A stretch of DNA of 45,809 nucleotides, taken from the NCBI GenBank assembly GCA_024854585.1, contig GCA_024854585.1_4323.1. One strand, given 5' to 3'. The position numbers were made by a program, and so were the translations under genes. This stretch comes from a phage. Below are positions 3,408 to 30,652 of this stretch, one piece after another. The notes under the pieces were generated by a model, which searched no databases, was not told where the DNA came from, and saw only the letters and a list, made by a program, of their open reading frames with translations. Every line of letters starts with the position of its first letter. Position 1 is the stretch's first letter.

Positions 3408-3428
3408 TTTAGCAATTCGTGCTATTTA
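3408..3428 (-). promoter_or_regulatory. Palindromic early-promoter/operator motif copy (TTTAGCAATTCGTGCTATTTA on + strand)
   Basis: Contains inverted repeat TAGCA-N5-TGCTA; overlaps TerL stop codon; TATAGT-like hexamer about 20 nt toward downstream gene. Confidence 0.6.
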
Positions 3429-4987
3429 ATTCCTGCTATGCGCATTAGTCTCGCCTTAGGATCATCCGCGATGTTAAGTACAAGGTTTGCCGCCATTGTT
3501 AGACAGTCAATTTGGTCGTCGTGCTTATGCGAGTCATCTGCCGTAAAAGCCGCAACCTCAGTGAGCAATCCGTTTAGCCACGGCGATGACTCTGGAAGAA
3601 CTACGTTACCAGCCTTAATCTGTGGTAGTGCACTCATCACCCTGGTTAGCTTGTCATTATCCGGTACGTATGACTCTATCGGTGTTCGCATAACCCTGCC
3701 AGCTGATTGAATCAGGCCGATACCAGACGCTTTCTTCTCGATAATAATCTTTCTTAGGATACCATCTGACTGACTGGTTGCCCTTGATTTCTTCTCGAAG
3801 TCCAGCAGTTCAGCCTCCAACTCTGGGGCCTCCCATTTACCCCTGCGCTGATCAATAAGGTAAATCTTAGCATCTTTATAGCCCCACAACTGAAGAACAG
3901 AGAAGTCGCTGTAACTTTTAGTGGTCATTGCGGTATCGCAAGTTATGAATCGATAGTCGTACTTAGCTGGAGGTCTGAACGTATCACTGATTCGCTGGAA
4001 CCAGTCCACGTTAATTAGGTTGCCACCCAGTGCTACTGGCTCCTGCTGATATTGACTAAGGAATGTGTACGGGTCGCTATCCCACATTGCCACCAGGTCG
4101 TTTACGGATTCCTTTTTAGGAAAGTAGCTGTAGTACTTTACGCCATCTCGCTCAATGTATTCGCTGCTTAGTACGTCCTCAGCAAACTGATCTTTAATCC
4201 AGTCAGGAAGTGAATCAATGTAATCCTCAGTAACTAATGCTGGTATCTTAATCAAATCGAATTCGATACCCATGCCGCCTTCCATCATGAAATAGGTTGA
4301 GTCATTGACGTGAAGCCGCTGCTGTATCGAAATGATTGGTGTCGCTTTGCCTTTTACAGAACTGGCTCGACGTGAGCGAATCGTATTTTTAAGCATTACG
4401 TGATTATTCGATCGGTACACTGCTGATAACATATCTGCGGGTTTGTCAAAGTCATCCAAAAGAACGGCTCCGCTGTATGTTTCGGTTATGTACCCACCGC
4501 GAGCGCCAGTAATCTGGCCTCCAGCCGCCTTTGATATTGACTCAAATCTAACCTTGCCACTCTCATCAAGAACCTGAAGCTCATCGTCTTTGCAAGTGCC
4601 AAACTTGCATGGCCAGAGTGACTGAAATTCTTGAGACTTGATAAGGTCGCGTACTCGCTTCGAGTTACGCTTAACCAGGGAGTCAGCAAAAGAGATGTTA
4701 AGGTTGCGCACCTTCCTAAGCTTAACCATCGAATAGGCCGGGAAGTGGATTGAGGCAATTTCCGTCTTTCCGCTGCCTGGTGCTATGTTAATGATGGTGT
4801 CCTTGCGCTCTCCTGCGATAATCTCGTCAATTATTCTGCACAAGTACTTGTGATGCCAGTTAGGGATGTATCGCTCGCCTTGCGTGATCTGGAACCAGCA
4901 ACGAAGAAAGCCCTCGAAGCTGTGTTCTGATATCGCCTTAACGGCCATCTTTTCCTGAATGGTCATTTCTTCCCATACTAAAGACAT
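3422..4987 (-). CDS. Terminase large subunit
   Basis: 521 aa; Walker A-like NIAPGSGKTE near N-terminus; precedes portal. Confidence 0.75.
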   Translation of the reverse strand: MSLVWEEMTIQEKMAVKAISEHSFEGFLRCWFQITQGERYIPNWHHKYLCRIIDEIIAGERKDTIINIAPGSGKTEIASIHFPAYSMVKLRKVRNLNISFADSLVKRNSKRVRDLIKSQEFQSLWPCKFGTCKDDELQVLDESGKVRFESISKAAGGQITGARGGYITETYSGAVLLDDFDKPADMLSAVYRSNNHVMLKNTIRSRRASSVKGKATPIISIQQRLHVNDSTYFMMEGGMGIEFDLIKIPALVTEDYIDSLPDWIKDQFAEDVLSSEYIERDGVKYYSYFPKKESVNDLVAMWDSDPYTFLSQYQQEPVALGGNLINVDWFQRISDTFRPPAKYDYRFITCDTAMTTKSYSDFSVLQLWGYKDAKIYLIDQRRGKWEAPELEAELLDFEKKSRATSQSDGILRKIIIEKKASGIGLIQSAGRVMRTPIESYVPDNDKLTRVMSALPQIKAGNVVLPESSPWLNGLLTEVAAFTADDSHKHDDQIDCLTMAANLVLNIADDPKARLMRIAGIK

Positions 4988-9879: not shown

Positions 9880-9900
9880 TTTAGCAATTCGTGCTATTTA
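9880..9900 (-). promoter_or_regulatory. Palindromic promoter/operator motif copy
   Basis: tttagcaattcgtgctattta; overlaps stop of 9894..10418. Confidence 0.6.
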
Positions 9901-10418
9901 CCATTCAGGATTGATTTAGCTTTCCGGTACAACTCAATCGCCTCCTCAACCTCTTCCTCACTGTACCGTAAGTGGTATGGTAGTCTACTAGCGTGCTCAC
10001 CTTCGTAAGTTTTGAAGTTTGGTTGCCAACACTCATCAATGATAGCCGGATGAACATAAATCTTATCTCCAATGAGGCAAGCTAGATTCATACTCTCTAG
10101 GGCTGGGATAAGCTCATCCTTAATGCTCGCCATGATATCAACGCAGCCCACGAACGGCTTAACCTTACGTGCAGCTTCGTGTACAGACTTGACACCCACC
10201 ACTCCCTTGACGTTCCTTGTCATCTTCCTAATCAACTTAATCAGAACCCCCAGCGCTTCATCTCTGTATACTTCCGATGCATCAGGCTGCCCCCAGAGGT
10301 GCTGAACATGCCTATACCCGTTAGCATTGATTGCAACCCGCAGTGGCGGCAGCCCATCCTGGATTGCAATATTCATAATCTGCTCGTCCGTCAGTTTCTC
10401 TTCGTTGAAATCAAACAT
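9894..10418 (-). CDS. Hypothetical protein; internally deleted paralog of 13243..14826 (shares its N- and C-terminal segments)
   Basis: MFDFNEEKLTDEQIMNIA...LPPLRVAINANGYR and ...GVVGVKSVHEAARKVKPF...CLIGDKIYV match N- and C-termini of the 527-aa protein. Confidence 0.6.
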   Translation of the reverse strand: MFDFNEEKLTDEQIMNIAIQDGLPPLRVAINANGYRHVQHLWGQPDASEVYRDEALGVLIKLIRKMTRNVKGVVGVKSVHEAARKVKPFVGCVDIMASIKDELIPALESMNLACLIGDKIYVHPAIIDECWQPNFKTYEGEHASRLPYHLRYSEEEVEEAIELYRKAKSILNGK

Positions 10419-10960
10419 TATTTAGCATCCTTAATCAAATCATAAAATCTACCGATAGCAATCTCTGCACCAACCTTCCGCTCACCATCCAAGTCCATAA
10501 CGCTCGGGACTACCTTCATTAATCTTGACTTGAATGATTCAATAACAGCAGCATCGCTATCTATCTTTCTCCTGGCGCTCTCGCTCTTCTTATGTTCACC
10601 ATCGCAGATCTGGATTACAAGATACTTATCTGCACCGTCACCGTCGAATTGCTTTGCACTCGTCTGCTCACCATCATCATCAATCCAGATTATCTTGTGC
10701 TTAGCGTGCTTTCCTGCAACCCTTAGTTGAGGCATCCTTGATACCGTATTGTAAATGTATGAGTTCTTCAATTCTGGAATCGACCGCTCCTTAAGGTTGA
10801 TGATCTCATCAGTTTCAACATCATACTTGAGCTCAGGATAATCCCGACCCCTAAGCACCTTGAATATTTCCCTTACAGGAACCTTAAACTCACCATCGCT
10901 GGACTCCATAGCTTTACTTACCATATTCCTGATTACTTCACCAAGCGTCACTTTATTCAT
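10418..10960 (-). CDS. Hypothetical early protein
   Basis: 180 aa; first gene after divergent region A; stop overlaps start of 9894..10418 (TAATG). Confidence 0.55.
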   Translation of the reverse strand: MNKVTLGEVIRNMVSKAMESSDGEFKVPVREIFKVLRGRDYPELKYDVETDEIINLKERSIPELKNSYIYNTVSRMPQLRVAGKHAKHKIIWIDDDGEQTSAKQFDGDGADKYLVIQICDGEHKKSESARRKIDSDAAVIESFKSRLMKVVPSVMDLDGERKVGAEIAIGRFYDLIKDAK

Positions 10961-11235
10961 ATATCACCTCGTTGTTGCATACTGCGTTTCATTGATTGGT
11001 ATATTGCATCAGATTTACGCGTTAGTCAAAGTATTTCTTTGTATATTTTTCACCTAATACGCAAATCTGCCTCTAGCGCCGCATCATCTCTATATGTATA
11101 TTGCGCGTACGCCGTGTATACACTTTTTTACCCACCAGGCCCCATGCATGCCTATCCATTCCTACAATGTCATCCCCTTCCTACAAGCGTCAGAATATCT
11201 GCGCGGAACATATCAATTATCCCATCAATTATCGG

Positions 11236-11305
11236 TATACACAGTATACATATATATAATAATAATAATAATAATAAAGTAAAAGGTTGATATATATAGG
11301 TATTA
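11236..11305 (+). repeat. Copy 1 of about 65-bp AT-rich repeat (tatacacagta...ataataataataataa agtaaaaggttgatatatatag)
   Basis: Near-identical block at about 29674-29736. Confidence 0.7.
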
Positions 11306-11587
11306 TATTGTATATCGCGTGTATATCTCGCGTAAAAACGTAGGTTAGTGGTCGCTAACTTTTGTGACGACACTGAGTATACTTAGGATACGCGTATATC
11401 TGTGAGGTGCTCATCGAGTGGTAAAATCAACTTGTATGGTAGTCCATCCATCTTTCATTCACCCACTCACCACTTCATTTCACTCTTCGCAACAATCAAA
11501 AACATCATTGCACCTGAAGCAATATTGCTGTACGTGCAATAATCATGTTAATCATTGCAATATCTGCAATAATCCATAAATCTGACG

Positions 11588-11607
11588 AATAGCACTTTTT
11601 GCTAAAG
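11588..11607 (+). promoter_or_regulatory. Motif copy in + gene orientation (aatagcactttttgctaaag)
   Basis: Followed by TATAGT-like hexamer and GAGGAGAGA RBS before ATG 11661. Confidence 0.5.
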
Positions 11608-12323: not shown

Positions 12324-12677
12324 ATGACTACTACGATTACTAAAAACTGGATCAGCAACGAAAACGTACTATACAAAGCTCGCGTTAAAGATGGTGTAGA
12401 ACAAATCAAGAAAGATGGGAAATGGGTTAACCTGGAAGAGCGCGGTAAGTACATCAAGACAAAGACCATTTACTGCACAAAGGTTAATCATCGAAGTGGT
12501 GTTAAGAAGAATTTCAATGTTGACTCAAGGTATCAAGTTAATATTCATTCGGGTCTTGGTCAGTGGGCGGGATATATCTATGACGAGGATGGTAGCGCGT
12601 GGCAACTTTACCGAAATGAAGAGGTTGGTTTCTTTACACTTTGCGGAACATATCTATTTGAGGCAAAATATTCATGA
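12324..12677 (+). CDS. Hypothetical protein; paralog of 16377..16577 (shared TIYCTK...Y core)
   Basis: 117 aa; KTIYCTKVNHRSG...GYIY resembles KIIYCTKNNSKT...GYYKIY. Confidence 0.5.
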   Translation: MTTTITKNWISNENVLYKARVKDGVEQIKKDGKWVNLEERGKYIKTKTIYCTKVNHRSGVKKNFNVDSRYQVNIHSGLGQWAGYIYDEDGSAWQLYRNEEVGFFTLCGTYLFEAKYS

Positions 12678-13171
12678 ACTTCAATGAGCTTTTTAGCTAT
12701 AAAGATGGTTTTCTTTATTGGAAATCGCTAGCACCATCAAAGAGCGGAAGGAAAAGCAGGATAAAGATTGGGGACAAGACCTCTGAGTTACTGACAAAAA
12801 GTGGTTATGATAGAGTCGTTGTAAACAATAAATTCTATTACAAGCATAGAGTTATATGGGAAATGCACAACGGACCAATACCAGATGGGATGCAAATTGA
12901 CCATATCAATCATGCTAGAAACGACAATAGAATTGAGAATTTAAGATTGGTAAGTAACTCTTCAAACTCAAAGAATCGAAGAATTCTAAAAAGAAACACA
13001 AGTGGATTCAATGGCGTTTACTTTTCAAACACGTTTAAAAGATGGATTGCAGAGGCAATGTTTGATGGAGTAAATTACAACTTAGGAAAATACAAAACGA
13101 AGGAAGAAGCCATAAAAGCAAGAAAGCAAGCAAACACTAAACTTGGTTTCCATGAAAATCACGGCAAATAA
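12674..13171 (+). CDS. HNH homing endonuclease with AP2-like DNA-binding domain
   Basis: HRVIWEM...DHINHARNDNRIENLRLVSNSSNSKN (HNH) then NGVYFSNTFKRWIAEAMF...YNLGKYKTKEEAIKARKQA (AP2-like). Confidence 0.8.
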   Translation: MNFNELFSYKDGFLYWKSLAPSKSGRKSRIKIGDKTSELLTKSGYDRVVVNNKFYYKHRVIWEMHNGPIPDGMQIDHINHARNDNRIENLRLVSNSSNSKNRRILKRNTSGFNGVYFSNTFKRWIAEAMFDGVNYNLGKYKTKEEAIKARKQANTKLGFHENHGK

Positions 13172-13242: not shown

Positions 13243-14826
13243 ATGTTTGATTTCAACGAAGATAAACTATCTGTTGAACAGGTTATGGCAATTGCTGCCG
13301 CAGACAACCTCCCGCCACTGCGAGTCGCCATTAATGCCAATGGCTATCGCCAATCTCAATCATTCTGGAAAGCGCCAGTCGAGATTGATGCAGCTAATGA
13401 CAAATACCCCGTAATATCTCTCGGCAATGATATTGATGTTGTTGGTAAACTGTCAGCCAACATTGCTCGTTCAGTTCAGTTCCCCGAGTCTTCAGCTTAC
13501 ATGCACTTCCTGGGGTGTATTTCTGCCGCTATGCTAGGACGCTTTACTGTTGAGTATCACGGAACTCATCAGCCTACGTCTCTGTACGTAGTAACAAGCC
13601 AGCCTCCATCGACTGGTAAATCAGCTATTAACTCGCTATCTATTGCTCCAATGATTGCTGAGACTGAGCGGCTGAATGAAGTTCGAAAGCGTGAGCGTAA
13701 AAAGATTATGGCAAAACTATCTGCATTATCAAAAGAGATGAAGCAGGAAAAGTCACCATCAGAGATGGCTTCTCTTTTCGAGGAGAAAGAGGAGTTGGAG
13801 GAAAAACTCGAGAAACTATGCGATATCGTTTTCCCGGTTTCAGATACCACACCGGAAGGTCTTGCGCGAATAAACAATCGTCAGGGTAACTTTGCAGTAA
13901 TCTCGGATGAGGCAACGAGTGTAAACTCACTACTTGGCATGACCTATGGTGACGGATCAAAGAAAACGAACAGCGAACTGGTACTGAAGGCATGGGATGC
14001 TGGCAACGTATCTATCGCTCGTGCTAACGCTGAAAACAACATGAGCTTCGTCGCTATGGGTTGCATCTCTGTAATTGCGCAGGATGAGACAATCAACGCT
14101 ATCATGAACGCTGGCGCGCGTGGTATCGGTGTATCTGAGCGTTTCCTGCTTGTACGTGAAAAGTCATTCCTGGGCGAGCGTGTATTCGTTGATGAAAATG
14201 GCGAATCGACTTATGAACCAATTGATGGCGGGTTGAAGGCTGATTACTTCCGTTTAGTTCACGAGATAATGAATGAGCAAGAAGTTAAGTTGACAGTTAG
14301 TAATTCAGCAATGAAATATCTCAACCGCGCTCGTCAGGAAATGGAACCGCACCTTGCTGACGGCGGGAAGTATTCACACACAATGTTGCGAGGTGCGCTT
14401 GGTAAGTTCGATAAACAGGCAATAAGGATTGCGGCGGTACTTCATACTGTGCGCAACTGGTTCAACCCTAACGGCGGGAGTCCACATAAGTCTAGGGAGA
14501 TTGAACTTGATACTATGCAAGAGGCTGTAATCATGTTCCAGGAACTTAGCAAGACTTATCTGTCATCTGCAAACGCGGCTGGTCACGCTGGCGACAATGC
14601 CGAGATGAATAAGCTGATTGATATCCTGATCAAGCAAGGCAAAAGCGGGAAGGGCGTAGTTGGTATTCGTTCATTGTATGAAGCGGCTCGCAAGGTTAAG
14701 CCTTTCGAGGCTCAGGCGGGAGTAATGACGAAGATTAAAGATCACCTGCTGCCAATGCTTGATGAGAAAAACTATACTTGCCTGATTGGTGATAAAGTTT
14801 ACATTAATCCACGATTGCTGGGGTGA
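13243..14826 (+). CDS. Large hypothetical protein with P-loop-like motif (VVTSQPPSTGKSAI); possible NTPase of unknown role (track ORF starts 13201)
   Basis: 527 aa from ATG with GGAG RBS; GKS motif; termini shared with 9894..10418. Confidence 0.55.
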   Translation: MFDFNEDKLSVEQVMAIAAADNLPPLRVAINANGYRQSQSFWKAPVEIDAANDKYPVISLGNDIDVVGKLSANIARSVQFPESSAYMHFLGCISAAMLGRFTVEYHGTHQPTSLYVVTSQPPSTGKSAINSLSIAPMIAETERLNEVRKRERKKIMAKLSALSKEMKQEKSPSEMASLFEEKEELEEKLEKLCDIVFPVSDTTPEGLARINNRQGNFAVISDEATSVNSLLGMTYGDGSKKTNSELVLKAWDAGNVSIARANAENNMSFVAMGCISVIAQDETINAIMNAGARGIGVSERFLLVREKSFLGERVFVDENGESTYEPIDGGLKADYFRLVHEIMNEQEVKLTVSNSAMKYLNRARQEMEPHLADGGKYSHTMLRGALGKFDKQAIRIAAVLHTVRNWFNPNGGSPHKSREIELDTMQEAVIMFQELSKTYLSSANAAGHAGDNAEMNKLIDILIKQGKSGKGVVGIRSLYEAARKVKPFEAQAGVMTKIKDHLLPMLDEKNYTCLIGDKVYINPRLLG

Positions 14827-15194: not shown

Positions 15195-15569
15195 ACGTCT
15201 TAAGATTACAGTCAGGAGAATTAAAACAAGAAGACCCATAGCTCCCGTTCCAATCCAAGGAAGTGCGGATGAGTCGTTATTGGTAATTTCAATCTTTTCG
15301 GCAGTAATTGTTGAGGCCTTAATCGAGTTGTCAGTAGTCTTTTTCCCGCTCGAACTATCCAGTGATCCTACGCTTGAATCCTTAACGGTGGCATCGCTGG
15401 AGTTACTGGAATCGACCTTATTCGCCAACCCAACTCCAACCTTGTTATTCTCGGCACCAGCCTGCGCACTAATTTCCGGCTTACTGCCAATTAATCCGGT
15501 CAGAGCAGATGTTGCTGAACATCCAGACAGAGCTACGCACATCACTAACGATGCAATCCACTTAAGCAT
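15180..15569 (-). CDS. Unimolecular spanin-like lysis protein (lipoprotein N-terminus plus C-terminal transmembrane helix)
   Basis: N-terminal signal with lipobox LSGCSA; Ser/Thr-rich linker; C-terminal hydrophobic segment AMGLLVLILLTVIL followed by RRKK; last gene of lysis cassette. Confidence 0.55.
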   Translation of the reverse strand: MLKWIASLVMCVALSGCSATSALTGLIGSKPEISAQAGAENNKVGVGLANKVDSSNSSDATVKDSSVGSLDSSSGKKTTDNSIKASTITAEKIEITNNDSSALPWIGTGAMGLLVLILLTVILRRKKAS

Positions 15570-16606: not shown

Positions 16607-17143
16607 TTATACGGCATTGGTTAGGCAAAAATTGCTATTTCTAGCTTCTTCCGTGATTTTCGTGAAACCCCATAGACTTCTCAACCTCAAGCCTGAGCTT
16701 GACAGCTGTTTCATACAATCCCCATGATAAATGTATTTTACTTTCTGCTTTCCACATTTTTCAATCCTATAGCTAACACTAGCTATCCACTTCCCCTTAT
16801 TGTTCATATACACACCATGAACACCGGATTTGTTTTTAGAATTCAACTTCATATTTTTGTGATTATCTCTATTATTAACCACTCTGAGGTTTTCAATTCT
16901 GTCATCACCTGGAACTCCATTGATGTGATCAACCTGCATCCCATTAGGTATCTCTCCATTAAACATCTCCCAGACAACCCTATTCCTTGCGTGCTTTTTG
17001 TTGTTTATTGTTATATAACAATACCCATCAAACCTAACGCTACCAGCCTTATCTCCAGGGTAGTATTTTGTGACACCTCTACCACCTTCAATCGCCCAAT
17101 AAAGAAATCCGTCTTCATAATTAAAATAATAATGCCAATTCAT
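16607..17143 (-). CDS. HNH homing endonuclease with AP2-like domain
   Basis: HARNRVVWEM...DHINGVPGDDRIENLRVVNNRDNHKN then GVHGVYMNNKGKWIASV; 3-prime end runs through a degenerate motif copy. Confidence 0.75.
   Translation of the reverse strand: MNWHYYFNYEDGFLYWAIEGGRGVTKYYPGDKAGSVRFDGYCYITINNKKHARNRVVWEMFNGEIPNGMQVDHINGVPGDDRIENLRVVNNRDNHKNMKLNSKNKSGVHGVYMNNKGKWIASVSYRIEKCGKQKVKYIYHGDCMKQLSSSGLRLRSLWGFTKITEEARNSNFCLTNAV
16621..16640 (-). promoter_or_regulatory. Degenerate motif copy inside 3-prime end of HNH gene
   Basis: ttaggcaaaaattgctattt; followed by hairpin gccgcatttatacggc and CATAAT-like hexamer. Confidence 0.35.
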
Positions 17144-22346: not shown

Positions 22347-22829
22347 ATGAATGCAGTTGACAAGCGAACCACTAACGGTAATAACGGAACTATCCGCACT
22401 GAAGACAAAAAACAACGTAAACGACCTTCAGGCTACTACGTTTTAAAAGATGAAGTAAGAGCCGGGCTACGCGCGCGGCTTGAGATGCTCCTTGATTTCT
22501 TCGTCACAAAGGCGAATATTGCAAAGCAGTTAAAGGTAACTCCGCAGGCTGTAGAAGAATGGTTTAAGCGTGGTATGATTTCTGCGCGCGGTGCTCAACT
22601 GTCGCACAACTACTACAAACGAAACGGAGAGGGTTTTCGTGCTACATTCTGCCGACCAGACCTGCAATTTGACGGTAACGGCAAGCCACTGACACTCCGG
22701 TGCAAAAAGCGTCACATGCTACGCGTGGTTACTGAGGCTGAGTTAGCCACCAAGCCAGAGTGTCGATCATGGCGCAAGATTAAGGCCGCTAACGAGGCAG
22801 CACGAAAAGCTAAAGAGCAAGGGAAATAG
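22347..22829 (+). CDS. Putative HTH DNA-binding protein
   Basis: 160 aa; KANIAKQLKVTPQAVEEWFKRGMIS resembles Cro/YdaS-type HTH; basic termini. Confidence 0.45.
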   Translation: MNAVDKRTTNGNNGTIRTEDKKQRKRPSGYYVLKDEVRAGLRARLEMLLDFFVTKANIAKQLKVTPQAVEEWFKRGMISARGAQLSHNYYKRNGEGFRATFCRPDLQFDGNGKPLTLRCKKRHMLRVVTEAELATKPECRSWRKIKAANEAARKAKEQGK

Positions 22830-23866: not shown

Positions 23867-23888
23867 CTTAGCAATTCGTGCTATTTTA
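23867..23888 (-). promoter_or_regulatory. Motif copy in minus-gene orientation with no minus-strand gene to drive (module-boundary remnant?)
   Basis: cttagcaattcgtgctatttta sits 20 nt upstream of tailspike ATG. Confidence 0.4.
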
Positions 23889-28205: not shown

Positions 28206-29168
28206 TTCGTCTCTATACTTCCTCATATCCCACTCAGGAACATCTAAATCAATCTCTGTTGCGCCCATTGCATAACCTGGCCACACATCATTCTCTTTGC
28301 ACTTTTTGTAAGTGGCAAGCGCCTCTAAATACATCCTGCGACCAACCTTCAGTTGCTCTTCTGTAATGTTGTAAAGCATTGGTAGGTAAGGCTCCTCTTT
28401 CTCGATCGCAAGTAGCCTTACTTTTGTTTTTCTTTTTTCATTAAAAGCCCTAACAAAAACATCGTGCTGTAGCGCCATTTTTGCAAGATAACCATGCTTG
28501 AATGCAAGTCTACCAAACTCATGAGGTGATGCGCTGGATGTCGTCTTAAGGTCGGTAATGCACACAACCCCATCAACAACATCTACGTGGTCAATTCGAA
28601 TCTTCACTCCGACGCCGAGAATCTCACCGAAGATTGATAACTCTTTCTGCGCCGTCTCGCTATTCACGATTGCGCTGTACGCTGGTATATTGCAAAGAAC
28701 TTCTCGCATAGACACAACTTTGTCATAGTCTGCCGCGCTAACTAGCTCCTTACACTCTACAAGCGCTTGCGCGCTCTCCTGCTGCTCAATTAGCCATTTA
28801 ACAGGCCAATCCTCACCAGAACGATACATCATCTCTACTAGCTCGCTATACCCCTTCCCGGACGTGCCGGCTACGCCAACTTTTTTAAGCGCTGCCGATA
28901 ATCCGGCTTGGCTTGTAATTAATCCTTCAATCGCGTCAAGGTCTGTAGCTCGAAGGTATTCTTTATCAAACATGTCACCTTCTAGGATGTACGTGTGACT
29001 CAGCGTTCCAAACTTAAGAGCCTTTCTATCATTATTGCGCTGCTTGAACTTCCACTTTGCTGGTGAGCCCTGAATAATCTCGACAAGTGAGCTACCGGAG
29101 ATGTGTTCAGTTTCAGCGTGGTAAGCCTCGTTGCTTAGCTCCTCTCTCGTAAAAACTTTAAAGCTCAT
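28200..29168 (-). CDS. PD-(D/E)xK recombination exonuclease (YqaJ/Cas4-like)
   Basis: 322 aa; ...IRIDHVDVVDGVVCITDLKTT (D...D.K nuclease core); first gene of recombination module. Confidence 0.5.
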   Translation of the reverse strand: MSFKVFTREELSNEAYHAETEHISGSSLVEIIQGSPAKWKFKQRNNDRKALKFGTLSHTYILEGDMFDKEYLRATDLDAIEGLITSQAGLSAALKKVGVAGTSGKGYSELVEMMYRSGEDWPVKWLIEQQESAQALVECKELVSAADYDKVVSMREVLCNIPAYSAIVNSETAQKELSIFGEILGVGVKIRIDHVDVVDGVVCITDLKTTSSASPHEFGRLAFKHGYLAKMALQHDVFVRAFNEKRKTKVRLLAIEKEEPYLPMLYNITEEQLKVGRRMYLEALATYKKCKENDVWPGYAMGATEIDLDVPEWDMRKYRDEI

Positions 29169-29171
29169 ATC

Positions 29172-29366
29172 CTATTCCTTAACCTTAACTACTTTAACAG
29201 ATTTCATATCTTCCTCAGTAAAGTACCCGGTCAGCACATCCCGGGCTTCTTCTTTAGTCTCGAATCTGTCTGCTTCGCTCTTATCTGTTGTGTACCCAGC
29301 TGGGCCGCCAAAGTAGCAGTCTCCGAACAGTGCATTGTTTTTCTCTTTGATAATGTAGTAGGTCAT
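29172..29366 (-). CDS. Hypothetical small protein
   Basis: 64 aa ORF directly upstream of exonuclease. Confidence 0.45.
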   Translation of the reverse strand: MTYYIIKEKNNALFGDCYFGGPAGYTTDKSEADRFETKEEARDVLTGYFTEEDMKSVKVVKVKE

Positions 29367-29673
29367 TTCTGCATCTCTCTATGGTTGATTGCTTTCGATT
29401 AGTTAACTATATAGTCAGCGCCATAGCCAGTCCAATTGGTTTTGCCAATCGTTGATTTAAGTTTACGTGTGAATGCTTGTAATTCCGTGTAGGCATTGCC
29501 ACTTGTTACGTAAAATGGCATCTCAGCCCAGATATAGCTCAATGTAACCATCGTGTATATCGTGTATACCGTTTCTTGCAGAGGGGTGAATTGGTATAGC
29601 TGCCACGCAATACTGTATAAATCCACATGATATTAAAATTATAACCGGAACACTCTATGGAAGTAGTTACATG

Positions 29674-29736
29674 ATATACACAGTAATATATATAATAATA
29701 ATAATAAGAGTAAAAGGTTGATATATATAGATATTT
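29674..29736 (+). repeat. Copy 2 of about 65-bp AT-rich repeat
   Basis: atatacacagtaatatatataataataataataagagtaaaaggttgatatatatag. Confidence 0.7.
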
Positions 29737-29854
29737 TAATGTAACTAATGCGTAAATTGGCGTAACAGCGCGTATATCATTTTTCGCGGATGAGATTGCA
29801 TACATCGAGTTACATCGGTTACGTGTAACTGTGATTTGTGGTGAATTTGGAGAT

Positions 29855-29875
29855 AAATAGCACGATTTGCTAAAG
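29855..29875 (+). promoter_or_regulatory. Motif copy in + orientation (aaatagcacgatttgctaaag)
   Basis: Upstream of 29981..30652. Confidence 0.5.
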
Positions 29876-29980
29876 ACAACTAGCTATCTTTGGGTATATT
29901 TAGGCGCATGGCGGCAATGGTGCTGCTTGGTCTACCGAAAATCGGCAGACCAAAACCAAACGATGGCTAAAATCTGAGAC

Positions 29981-30652
29981 ATGAAAAACATAAGAGAGAC
30001 TAAAATGAACATTGAAGCGTACAAAGAACAGCCAAAAACCATGATGAGCACGAAGGAAATTGCTGAATTGACAGGTAAGCGTCATGATCACGTCGTTCGC
30101 GACACAAAGGAAATGATCAATGAATTGTTACATTATAACTATGCCCCAGATTTGGGTCATGATGATTATCAAGTACTTACGGACAATCGCGGCTATACAT
30201 CTGAGGTTTTACTCAACAAGGAACTCACCGAAACGCTAATCACTGGCTACAGTGTCGTACTTCGCCACAAAGTAATCCGCAGGCTTCATGAGCTTGAGGT
30301 GTTAGTTAAAAAACAAGCAGAAGTGATCAGCCAGATGGTAAGCATTGATGAGTTAAAAGAGGCGCGCATGATGCTTGGTGTGGCTAATGCTCAGAATGCA
30401 CACCTGAGCCAGCGCATTGTTGCAGAGCAAAGAATAAATGAGATTTTACTCATGGATAAGAATACCGATGAAAAACTCGACATGTTGGCTTGTGAGGCTC
30501 GCCAGTGTTGGGTTAGTCGTTCTGATGAGATGGAGGAAAGATTTAAGTATGAATCGCAATGCTTCGCGCTTAAAGAAAAGACGGATGCACTTACCGGATT
30601 AATTGAGAATGAGCTAGGTATTGACATTAAGCTGTTGCTCGAAAAGAAATAG
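29981..30652 (+). CDS. Rha-like phage regulatory protein (possible true start at 30005)
   Basis: N-terminal STKEIAELTGKRHDHVVRD pattern typical of Rha-family regulators; coiled-coil C-terminus. Confidence 0.45.
   Translation: MKNIRETKMNIEAYKEQPKTMMSTKEIAELTGKRHDHVVRDTKEMINELLHYNYAPDLGHDDYQVLTDNRGYTSEVLLNKELTETLITGYSVVLRHKVIRRLHELEVLVKKQAEVISQMVSIDELKEARMMLGVANAQNAHLSQRIVAEQRINEILLMDKNTDEKLDMLACEARQCWVSRSDEMEERFKYESQCFALKEKTDALTGLIENELGIDIKLLLEKK

Follow-up and report, generated by a model that had tools for sequence, protein, structure and literature searches.

The subject of this study is a pair of related intergenic elements, here called copies A and B, in a 45,809 nt stretch of phage DNA (GCA_024854585.1, contig GCA_024854585.1_4323.1; referred to below as the window), with the emphasis on region B, the divergent gap at 29367–29980 that holds copy B. 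The window comes from a T1-like virulent siphophage, a coliphage of the Drexlerviridae (Braunvirinae). About 136 phage records match region B with its flanks, most closely those of the Escherichia phages Rao1 (92%), ZL19, BEK3 and vB_EcoS_CEB_EC3a (EC3a below), the last of which is classed as Drexlerviridae, Braunvirinae. To the left, all on the minus strand, lie a 64-aa gene (orf64, 29172–29366), which is the first gene on that side, and the genes for exonuclease VIII and an Erf-type annealing protein. To the right is a Rha-like gene (Phage_pRha, or 'anti-repressor'; 30005–30652, plus strand). The PHROG and Pfam matches of these genes bear out the original prediction that region B separates a leftward exonuclease VIII/Erf operon from a rightward Rha-like gene. 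The latter probably starts at ATG 30005 and not at 29981, where the mechanical open reading frame (ORF) begins, because the PHROG alignment opens at residue 8.

A repeat search linked 11229–11312 in region A to 29659–29743 in region B (families D7 and D16; 35 nt at 91%), and gapped blastn within the window aligned 11236–11405 with 29675–29834 at 70% identity over 172 columns (E 6e-20). The similarity of A and B is beyond chance. A second copy of an AT-rich, (ATA)n-bearing repeat had been claimed for region B, and it is indeed there, but its length is not 65 bp: the repeat consists of a core of about 80 nt inside about 170 nt of weaker similarity. Each copy is made up of an A/T tract with an (AAT)n run, a core matching the integration host factor (IHF) consensus, and flanking short boxes (GYGTAW, GTAAC and TACGYGTA), and the parts follow in the same order and the same orientation in both regions.

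In region B a left box field (29463–29572) holds CACGTAA, TACGTAAC and the cluster AATGTAACCATCGTGTATATCGTGTATACCG (29540–29570). Next come the left flanking boxes of the tract, TAGTTACATGATATACACAG (29664–29683), which are invariant in 10 relatives and have the counterpart GGTATACACAGTATACA in region A. They are followed by the proposed unwinding element, a 24-nt tract composed of A and T only, (TA)n(ATA)n, at 29684–29707, within which all 19 aligned copies of A and B keep ATAATAATAATAATA unchanged. A perfect 9-bp inverted repeat is formed across the tract by TAGTTACAT and ATGTAACTA (29739–29747). The predicted IHF core, TATCAACCTTTTA on the minus strand at 29711–29723, is a perfect match to the consensus WATCAANNNNTTR and lies inside AGTAAAAGGTTGATATATATAG, the most conserved core common to A and B. 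To its right are four direct boxes spaced 10–11 bp apart on the plus strand (29740–29778), namely TGTAAC (29740), GCGTAA (29750), GCGTAAC (29760) and GCGTATATC (29770); these phased boxes stand on one side of the tract, whose two flanks have boxes of opposite orientation. The box GCGCGTATATC at 29768–29778 has relatives in region A, GCGTGTATATC (11317–11327) and ACGCGTATATC (11390–11400), as had been noticed earlier. The right edge of the A/B similarity is occupied by ATACATCG-A-GTTACATCG-GTTACGTGTAAC (29800–29829), which amounts to two 8-mers (A/T)TACATCG 10 bp apart and then the palindromic TACGYGTA site TACGTGTA. The earlier description of this stretch as a tandem GTTACATCG-GTTACATCG was inexact, and the GTTACATCG units do not form an iteron class apart but belong to the broader GTAAC/GYGTAW box field; the near-palindrome GTTACGTGTAAC reported after them is present at 29818–29829. 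The module copy in region A (11229–11405) repeats the plan, with the boxes GGTATACACAGTATACA, an A/T tract at 11250–11277, an IHF core at 11280–11292 (minus strand), phased boxes at 11309–11345 and the palindrome TACGCGTA, the counterpart of GTTACGTGTAAC, at 11389–11396.

The pair recurs in every Braunvirinae genome for which both regions were captured (five besides the window) and is found in five lineages, the Braunvirinae, T1, TLS, Hanrivervirus and Webervirus, so that the conservation in relatives on which the original prediction depended is upheld. In T1 the two copies are 76% identical over 91 columns (E 7e-11), and in TLS 70% identical over 136 columns (E 2e-12) with a second collinear block; region B of TLS is not a strand switch. 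In the Webervirus mtp3, a Klebsiella phage, and the Hanrivervirus E6 the modules were located by the two least stable 80-bp windows of the genome, with no use of homology, and the paired modules so found are alike at E 2e-13 and 5e-11, respectively. One copy in each of these two phages lies about 350 bp upstream of the exonuclease gene and the other at or near the ends of the record, as region A also does in T1, TLS, Rao1 and EC3a. The mtp3 modules (15196–15301 and 49018–49118) are inverted relative to each other, and its helicase and exonuclease genes are on the same strand; from these two features its recombination block is read as inverted relative to that of the Braunvirinae, with the orientation of the module towards the exonuclease gene kept.

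Among nine Braunvirinae phages the B core (29650–29827) has a mean pairwise identity of 94.7% and 84% invariant columns, compared with 82–88% identity and 61–73% invariant columns for the exonuclease, erf and orf64 genes, and it is thus under stronger constraint than the genes that adjoin it. Nearly all of the 19 aligned copies keep ATAATAATAATAATA (19/19), a TATATA block, three phased CGTA boxes and the TACGYGTA palindrome. The aligned Braunvirinae copies of A drift while those of B are nearly invariant, on which ground concerted evolution of A and B was rejected; the pair also persists in lineages in which its copies have become very different. The B core gave no match in 5,426 complete E. 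coli genomes, and therefore the module was not borrowed from a host, prophage or satellite. A scan of IMG/VR for the exact pattern of a 19-nt core, a very strict one, found 13 loci.

Duplex stability was computed as nearest-neighbour energy in 40- and 80-bp windows. In the genome under study, Rao1, T1 and TLS, the two least stable windows of either size fall on copies A and B, and in mtp3 and E6 the same is true of the 80-bp windows. Across these six genomes the modules have instability z values of 4.4–6.3, with the third-ranked window at z ≤3.6. Copy A provides the least stable 40- and 80-bp windows of the genome studied here (z 5.0 and 5.4) and copy B the second least stable (z 4.4 and 5.0). 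By this computation, the easily melted A/T-rich segment expected of an origin is found in the A and B cores of all six.

The boxes were approached by an unbiased k-mer comparison of A plus B with the rest of each genome. In T1, TGTAACA occurs six times inside A plus B and never outside, and GTGTAACA four times inside and never outside; in TLS, GTGAACA is found four times inside and four times outside; and in the window the words are GTGTATA (five inside, six outside) and GATATAC (five inside, five outside). Expressed as degenerate patterns, the 602 nt of A plus B in the window contain 11 of the 43 YGYGTAW sites, 14 of the 45 GTATAY sites and 3 of the 4 strand-wise TACGYGTA sites. The enrichment of boxes in A and B is about 19-fold, with P-values that are optimistic because the patterns were chosen after inspection. 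Repeated short sites beside an unwinding element, another hallmark of origins, are therefore present, as post hoc motifs of 5–8 bp. Since the box words change between lineages and yet agree between A and B within a genome, this co-variation points to a lineage-specific binding protein rather than host RNA polymerase. It also bears on the very improbable view that the A/B similarity has no specific function and reflects shared ancestry or composition that is merely tolerated. Low-complexity (ATA)n and (TA)n tracts align easily and the boxes were chosen after inspection, but the pair has been retained in five lineages in which the proteins of the flanking genes share only 47–73% identity, the box sequences change together in A and B in each lineage, and the coding DNA around the B core is less conserved than the core itself.

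Family-wide low stability, co-variation of the boxes and constraint above that of coding DNA are the reasons for which we tentatively favour reading A and B as paired, paralogous cis modules with replication-origin anatomy, that is, an unwinding element with initiator boxes, located behind outward-firing promoters. The suggestion of dual origins made in the original prediction gains from the instability seen in six phages, the matched, phased boxes and the constraint on the B core, the support being, as for all functional claims about the modules, drawn from sequence. Several observations weigh against an origin. The near-invariance of the B core takes in the spacers, which is more than box binding alone would require, and the boxes themselves are short. 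The IHF core has three matches across the window, a number equal to the chance expectation, although two of the three fall in the A and B repeats; it was not seen in T1 or TLS, while being present in both copies of the Braunvirinae type in the window. No DnaA box was found in A or B with up to one mismatch allowed. GC and AT skew track the direction of transcription and say nothing on replication. AT-rich intergenic DNA beside promoters is common and may serve transcription, and the RecE/Erf genes of T1-like phages could mean that replication is largely driven by recombination and needs no classical origin.

A role in transcription is the chief alternative. Consensus scanning found a putative sigma-70-like promoter for the leftward orf64–exonuclease unit at 29406–29434 on the minus strand (TGGACT-17 nt-TATAGT), which is conserved in the alignment of relatives and has counterparts by position in T1 (TTGACT-16-TATAAT, 30319–30346) and in TLS (P51; P01 and P51 are predicted promoters of TLS, PMC11447400 Table S1). 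It is followed by a leader with a Shine-Dalgarno-like AGAGAG (29367–29405, minus strand) upstream of the 64-aa gene, and this leader resembles that of the DR-type promoters of the phage (TATAGTTAAC..ATCGAAAGCAA). On the other side, a DR element, ATAGCACGATTTGCTAAA, and then AAGACA-16 nt-TATATT form a promoter-like unit for the Rha-like gene (29857–29900, plus strand). The stronger sigma-70-like promoters thus lie about 200–300 bp from the tract, beside the genes and not within it; the tract sits behind outward-firing promoters, and the DR promoters on the other side also point away.

It is possible, though on balance rather unlikely, that the modules are a shared upstream control region for two early units, the boxes being operators for a phage regulator that switches the two units jointly and the tract with its IHF site an architectural or UP-like element or a promoter. 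The leftward units of region A (10418–10960 onward) and region B (orf64–exonuclease) lack a DR and need some other promoter, and the module lies upstream of both. The A/B similarity in TLS reaches for about 290 nt towards P01 and P51, predicted promoters are annotated at the module in the EC3a GenBank record, and invariance of the whole B block would suit a densely packed control region. Consensus scans also place candidates within the tracts, TTTACT-18-TATATT (29714–29685) and TTTACT-16-TATTAT (11283–11256), each with 9/12 matches. However, promoter-like matches in A plus B are no commoner than in shuffled sequence (6, with 3.3 and 3.6 expected), Rao1 and 667180 no longer have the TTTACT/−10 pair in their A copies, and the B copy of T1 yielded no matching pair. 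A promoter inside the A/T tract, which is not kept across copies and lineages, seems doubtful. Moreover, a distance of 200–300 bp is far for an upstream element of a sigma-70 promoter, and the features kept throughout the family are low duplex stability and flanking boxes rather than −35 and −10 hexamers.

The DNA beyond the palindrome raises the question of exchange. Homology to Rtp, 601102, 667180 and 290_10 stops at 29827/29828, directly after the palindrome, and a different DR-promoter cassette lies beyond this mosaic junction in those phages; from this swap, the Rha-like gene behaves as a swappable module with its own promoter, outside the conserved element. Phased boxes are typical of small-terminase binding sites, and copy B adjoins recombination genes. 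In addition, the packaging (pac) site of T1-like phages has been put in the equivalent of region A (PMC7718038), and the T1 record, with its 2.8-kb terminal repeat, begins there. It is nevertheless quite unlikely that the modules are terminase (pac) sites or hot spots for RecE/Erf, including homology linkers for module exchange. TLS restriction data fit a single pac site (PMC11447400) and a pac site should occur once per genome, whereas the module is present twice. Region A has a better pac candidate of its own, a TGCAAT cluster (11489–11580) that is not found in B. In comparisons with Rao1 and EC3a, the blocks of identity end at about 27043 and 36754 and not jointly at A and B, the two copies do not homogenise each other, and essential helicase, primase and lysis genes would be lost if direct copies recombined. 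The proposal that the repeats delimit an exchangeable 18-kb module as recombination substrates is accordingly not supported, and of the synteny breaks that it foresaw at A and B there remains the local junction at 29827/29828, with its exchanged promoter-plus-gene cassette. The cluster at 11489–11580 consists of TGCAAT(A/T)(A/T) boxes with overlapping palindromes GCAATATTGC, just upstream of the DR promoter and in region A only, and a similar TGCAA-type cluster is located exactly at the start of the T1 GenBank record (at its terminal repeat); it is a candidate pac or terminase-binding region.

If the favoured origin-like reading is followed, a protein that recognises the boxes would be needed, and there are three candidates. 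The first is a DUF3987 helicase of 527 aa (13243–14826, plus strand; Pfam), about 1.9 kb from copy A. It probably starts at ATG 13243 and not at GTG 13201, because its homologues are about 527 aa long. Its AlphaFold model (pLDDT 88.5) has a C-terminal winged helix (residues about 450–527) of the order helix-strand-helix-helix-strand-strand, and the top 50 Foldseek hits are all MCM chains (E 1e-5 to 5e-3, TM about 0.35); sequence searches against P4 alpha, solved structures and NCBIfam found no homology. The second is a paralogue of 174 aa (9894–10418, minus strand; phrog_7327), an early protein that combines the N-terminal domain of the helicase (44%) with the winged helix (49%; BLASTP E 5e-21 and 1e-21, respectively) and in which the ATPase core is absent. 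Rao1 and EC3a have it whereas T1, TLS, mtp3 and E6 lack it, and so it is restricted to the Braunvirinae. Box binding by either of these is a prediction, and a helix-turn-helix (HTH) protein encoded upstream of the primase is a further candidate. The primase of the window has a relative in the primase domain of P4 alpha, with 25% identity over 256 columns (E 1e-12).

Two phage systems with paired sites invite comparison. In Bacillus phage SPP1, oriL and oriR are both targets of the protein G38P, and oriL is built of AB boxes and an AT-rich unwinding element (PMC5737612). As in the window, there are two distant sites in a virulent siphophage, with the same repeats beside an AT-rich unwinding element and one site near replication genes, binding and origin activity being predicted in the present case. 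The systems differ in that SPP1 relies on G38P as a dedicated organiser that delivers a DnaB-type helicase to the origin, and its oriL is inside gene 38, whereas no G38P-like protein was found in the window, the helicase is the MCM-like DUF3987 protein and both sites are intergenic. The satellite phage P4 has, in ori and crr, cis regions several kb apart that carry the same type 1 repeats, TGTTCAC(C/A) (NC_001609), and shared repeats in two cis regions are likewise found here, along with the related primase domain. However, P4 alpha unites primase, helicase and origin binding in one protein, while the window has separate primase and helicase genes, its helicase being unrelated to alpha by sequence and MCM-like in fold. 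In P4, crr is defined by the need for both sites in cis. The TLS A/B boxes CGTGAACA and GGAACA (about 400–440 and 28990–29010 of its record) are the reverse complement of the P4 type 1 core TGTTCAC (4314–4330 of the P4 record), a correspondence of GTGAACA with that core which may be a coincidence. By analogy, the A/B pair would work like the two-site systems of SPP1 and P4, yet it is a member of neither, as nothing resembling G38P was found and the phage's helicase has no relationship to alpha.

Plasmid and island origins offer a further comparison: pSC101 and R6K gamma have iteron origins with an AT-rich region and an IHF site, and the origins of SaPIs have iterons on both sides of an AT-rich tract. 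The modules resemble these in their A/T tract, in the Braunvirinae also the IHF-consensus site inside, and flanking short repeats of which some are phased by one helical turn. They are unlike classical iteron origins in that the boxes are 5–8 bp long rather than 17–22 bp, there is no DnaA box in A or B, and no gene for an initiator of the Rep family is present.

Region B had been described as free of ORFs. A mechanical ORF of 75 codons, orf75, does run through 29399–29626 on the minus strand and matches the N-terminal half of phrog_35664, the 64-aa gene matching the C-terminal half. In an alignment of ten relatives, however, the orf75 frame is broken by in-frame stops or a frameshift in three, and there is a 1-nt indel in the window's own orf75 stretch, which is conserved blockwise and not in codon-like triplets, and which also holds a promoter-like site followed by a leader typical of the other promoters of the phage. 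A coding reading of 29399–29626 was rejected on these grounds despite the PHROG match, and we conclude that 29367–30004 is effectively non-coding, with the orf75 stretch probably regulatory DNA, so that the description holds with this caveat. The 143-aa family phrog_35664 (e.g., EC3a gp44) appears to be an over-extended annotation in which only the C-terminal 64 aa (phrog_5247) look like a genuine gene. A scan of 29300–30100 with Rfam covariance models gave no match at E up to 1. A hairpin with a 12-bp stem, TTGGTCTACCGA / TCGGCAGACCAA (29927–29953; 92% complementary), lies downstream of the DR promoter, in the leader of the Rha-like gene ahead of its start codon, with no T-run after it.

The DR consensus aaATAGCACnnnTTGnTAAAA, of 21 nt, has been described for TLS, T1 and Rtp (PMC11447400). 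Like the A/B module, DR elements are found across the Drexlerviridae and are intergenic, and one copy lies inside each region (29857–29874 in B, 11589–11606 in A); the module itself lacks the DR consensus, occurs twice per genome and is not a member of the DR class. The pattern ATAGCACnnnTTGnTAAA has 18 matches in the window with up to two mismatches, of which 17 are credible, against 0.56 expected, and these start at 3408, 7434, 8098, 8908, 9880, 11589, 12244, 17198, 19530, 19821, 22317, 22826, 23867, 28186, 29857, 30649 and 37220. The DR core is a palindrome, TAGCA-N5-TGCTA, and a conserved leader, CATCGAAACGA, follows the DR/−10 unit. In the copies inspected by eye there are about 22 nt from TGCTA to a TATAGT-type −10 box, which would put the centre of the palindrome near −42, where class II activator sites lie, and suggests that DR is a site for a dimeric phage activator rather than a 'stoperator'; this activator is perhaps the HTH protein at 22347–22829. 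One copy (23867–23884, minus strand) is on the strand opposite to the flanking genes, at the junction of primase and tail-fibre genes, and since the core is palindromic it may act in either direction. Two other genes, at 12674–13171 (plus strand) and 16607–17143 (minus strand), are related, with 48 nt of inverted similarity at their starts. The first, located between the early genes and the helicase gene, specifies an HNH_3 endonuclease with a weak AP2-like match, and both probably encode homing endonucleases.

Under the origin-like reading, a phage protein, either the MCM-like DUF3987 helicase through its winged helix, the Braunvirinae paralogue or an HTH protein, would first bind the boxes, and the DNA would be bent by IHF. 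Outward transcription on both sides, on the left from the sigma-70-like promoter some 250 bp away and on the right from the DR promoter, would then add negative supercoiling, upon which the tract could open and the helicase be loaded, with synthesis begun by the P4-alpha-like primase and host DNA polymerase III. Both copies might be origins, as proposed for SPP1 (oriL/oriR), or one might enhance the other, as in P4 (ori/crr). It could be speculated further, as an unlikely case, that T1-like phages have a two-site origin whose modules are both read by the winged-helix tail of a self-loading, MCM-like DUF3987 helicase, that the ATPase-less paralogue of the Braunvirinae is a competitor or loader (compare Cnr acting on P4 alpha), and that the invariant (AAT)5 is read in 3-nt steps of single-stranded DNA, like DnaA-trios. 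If true, this would be an origin of a bacterial virus that follows MCM-type and not DnaA/DnaB logic.

The study of TLS published in 2024 reported the DR repeats, found no origin-type repeats and listed open questions on T1-like phages (PMC11447400), and no origin was found in SU57 (PMC7718038). The searchable literature, which does not cover the original genome papers of T1 (Virology 2004) and Rtp (J Bacteriol 2006), gave no transcription start sites, no origin mapping and no earlier account of the pair. The A and B modules may be considered the best candidates so far for the unmapped origins of the T1-like family, and the search for an origin is narrowed to two defined modules of about 180 bp each, with named candidate binding proteins. 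T1 belongs to the original set of T phages and is notorious for contaminating laboratories, and Drexlerviridae are common in phage-therapy collections. If the origin-like reading is true, this family would gain its origin or origins, virulent phages a further case of paired origins, and the widespread DUF3987 helicases a role; if the modules are instead a control region, they would be the early-gene switch of the T1-like phages, which is equally uncharacterised.

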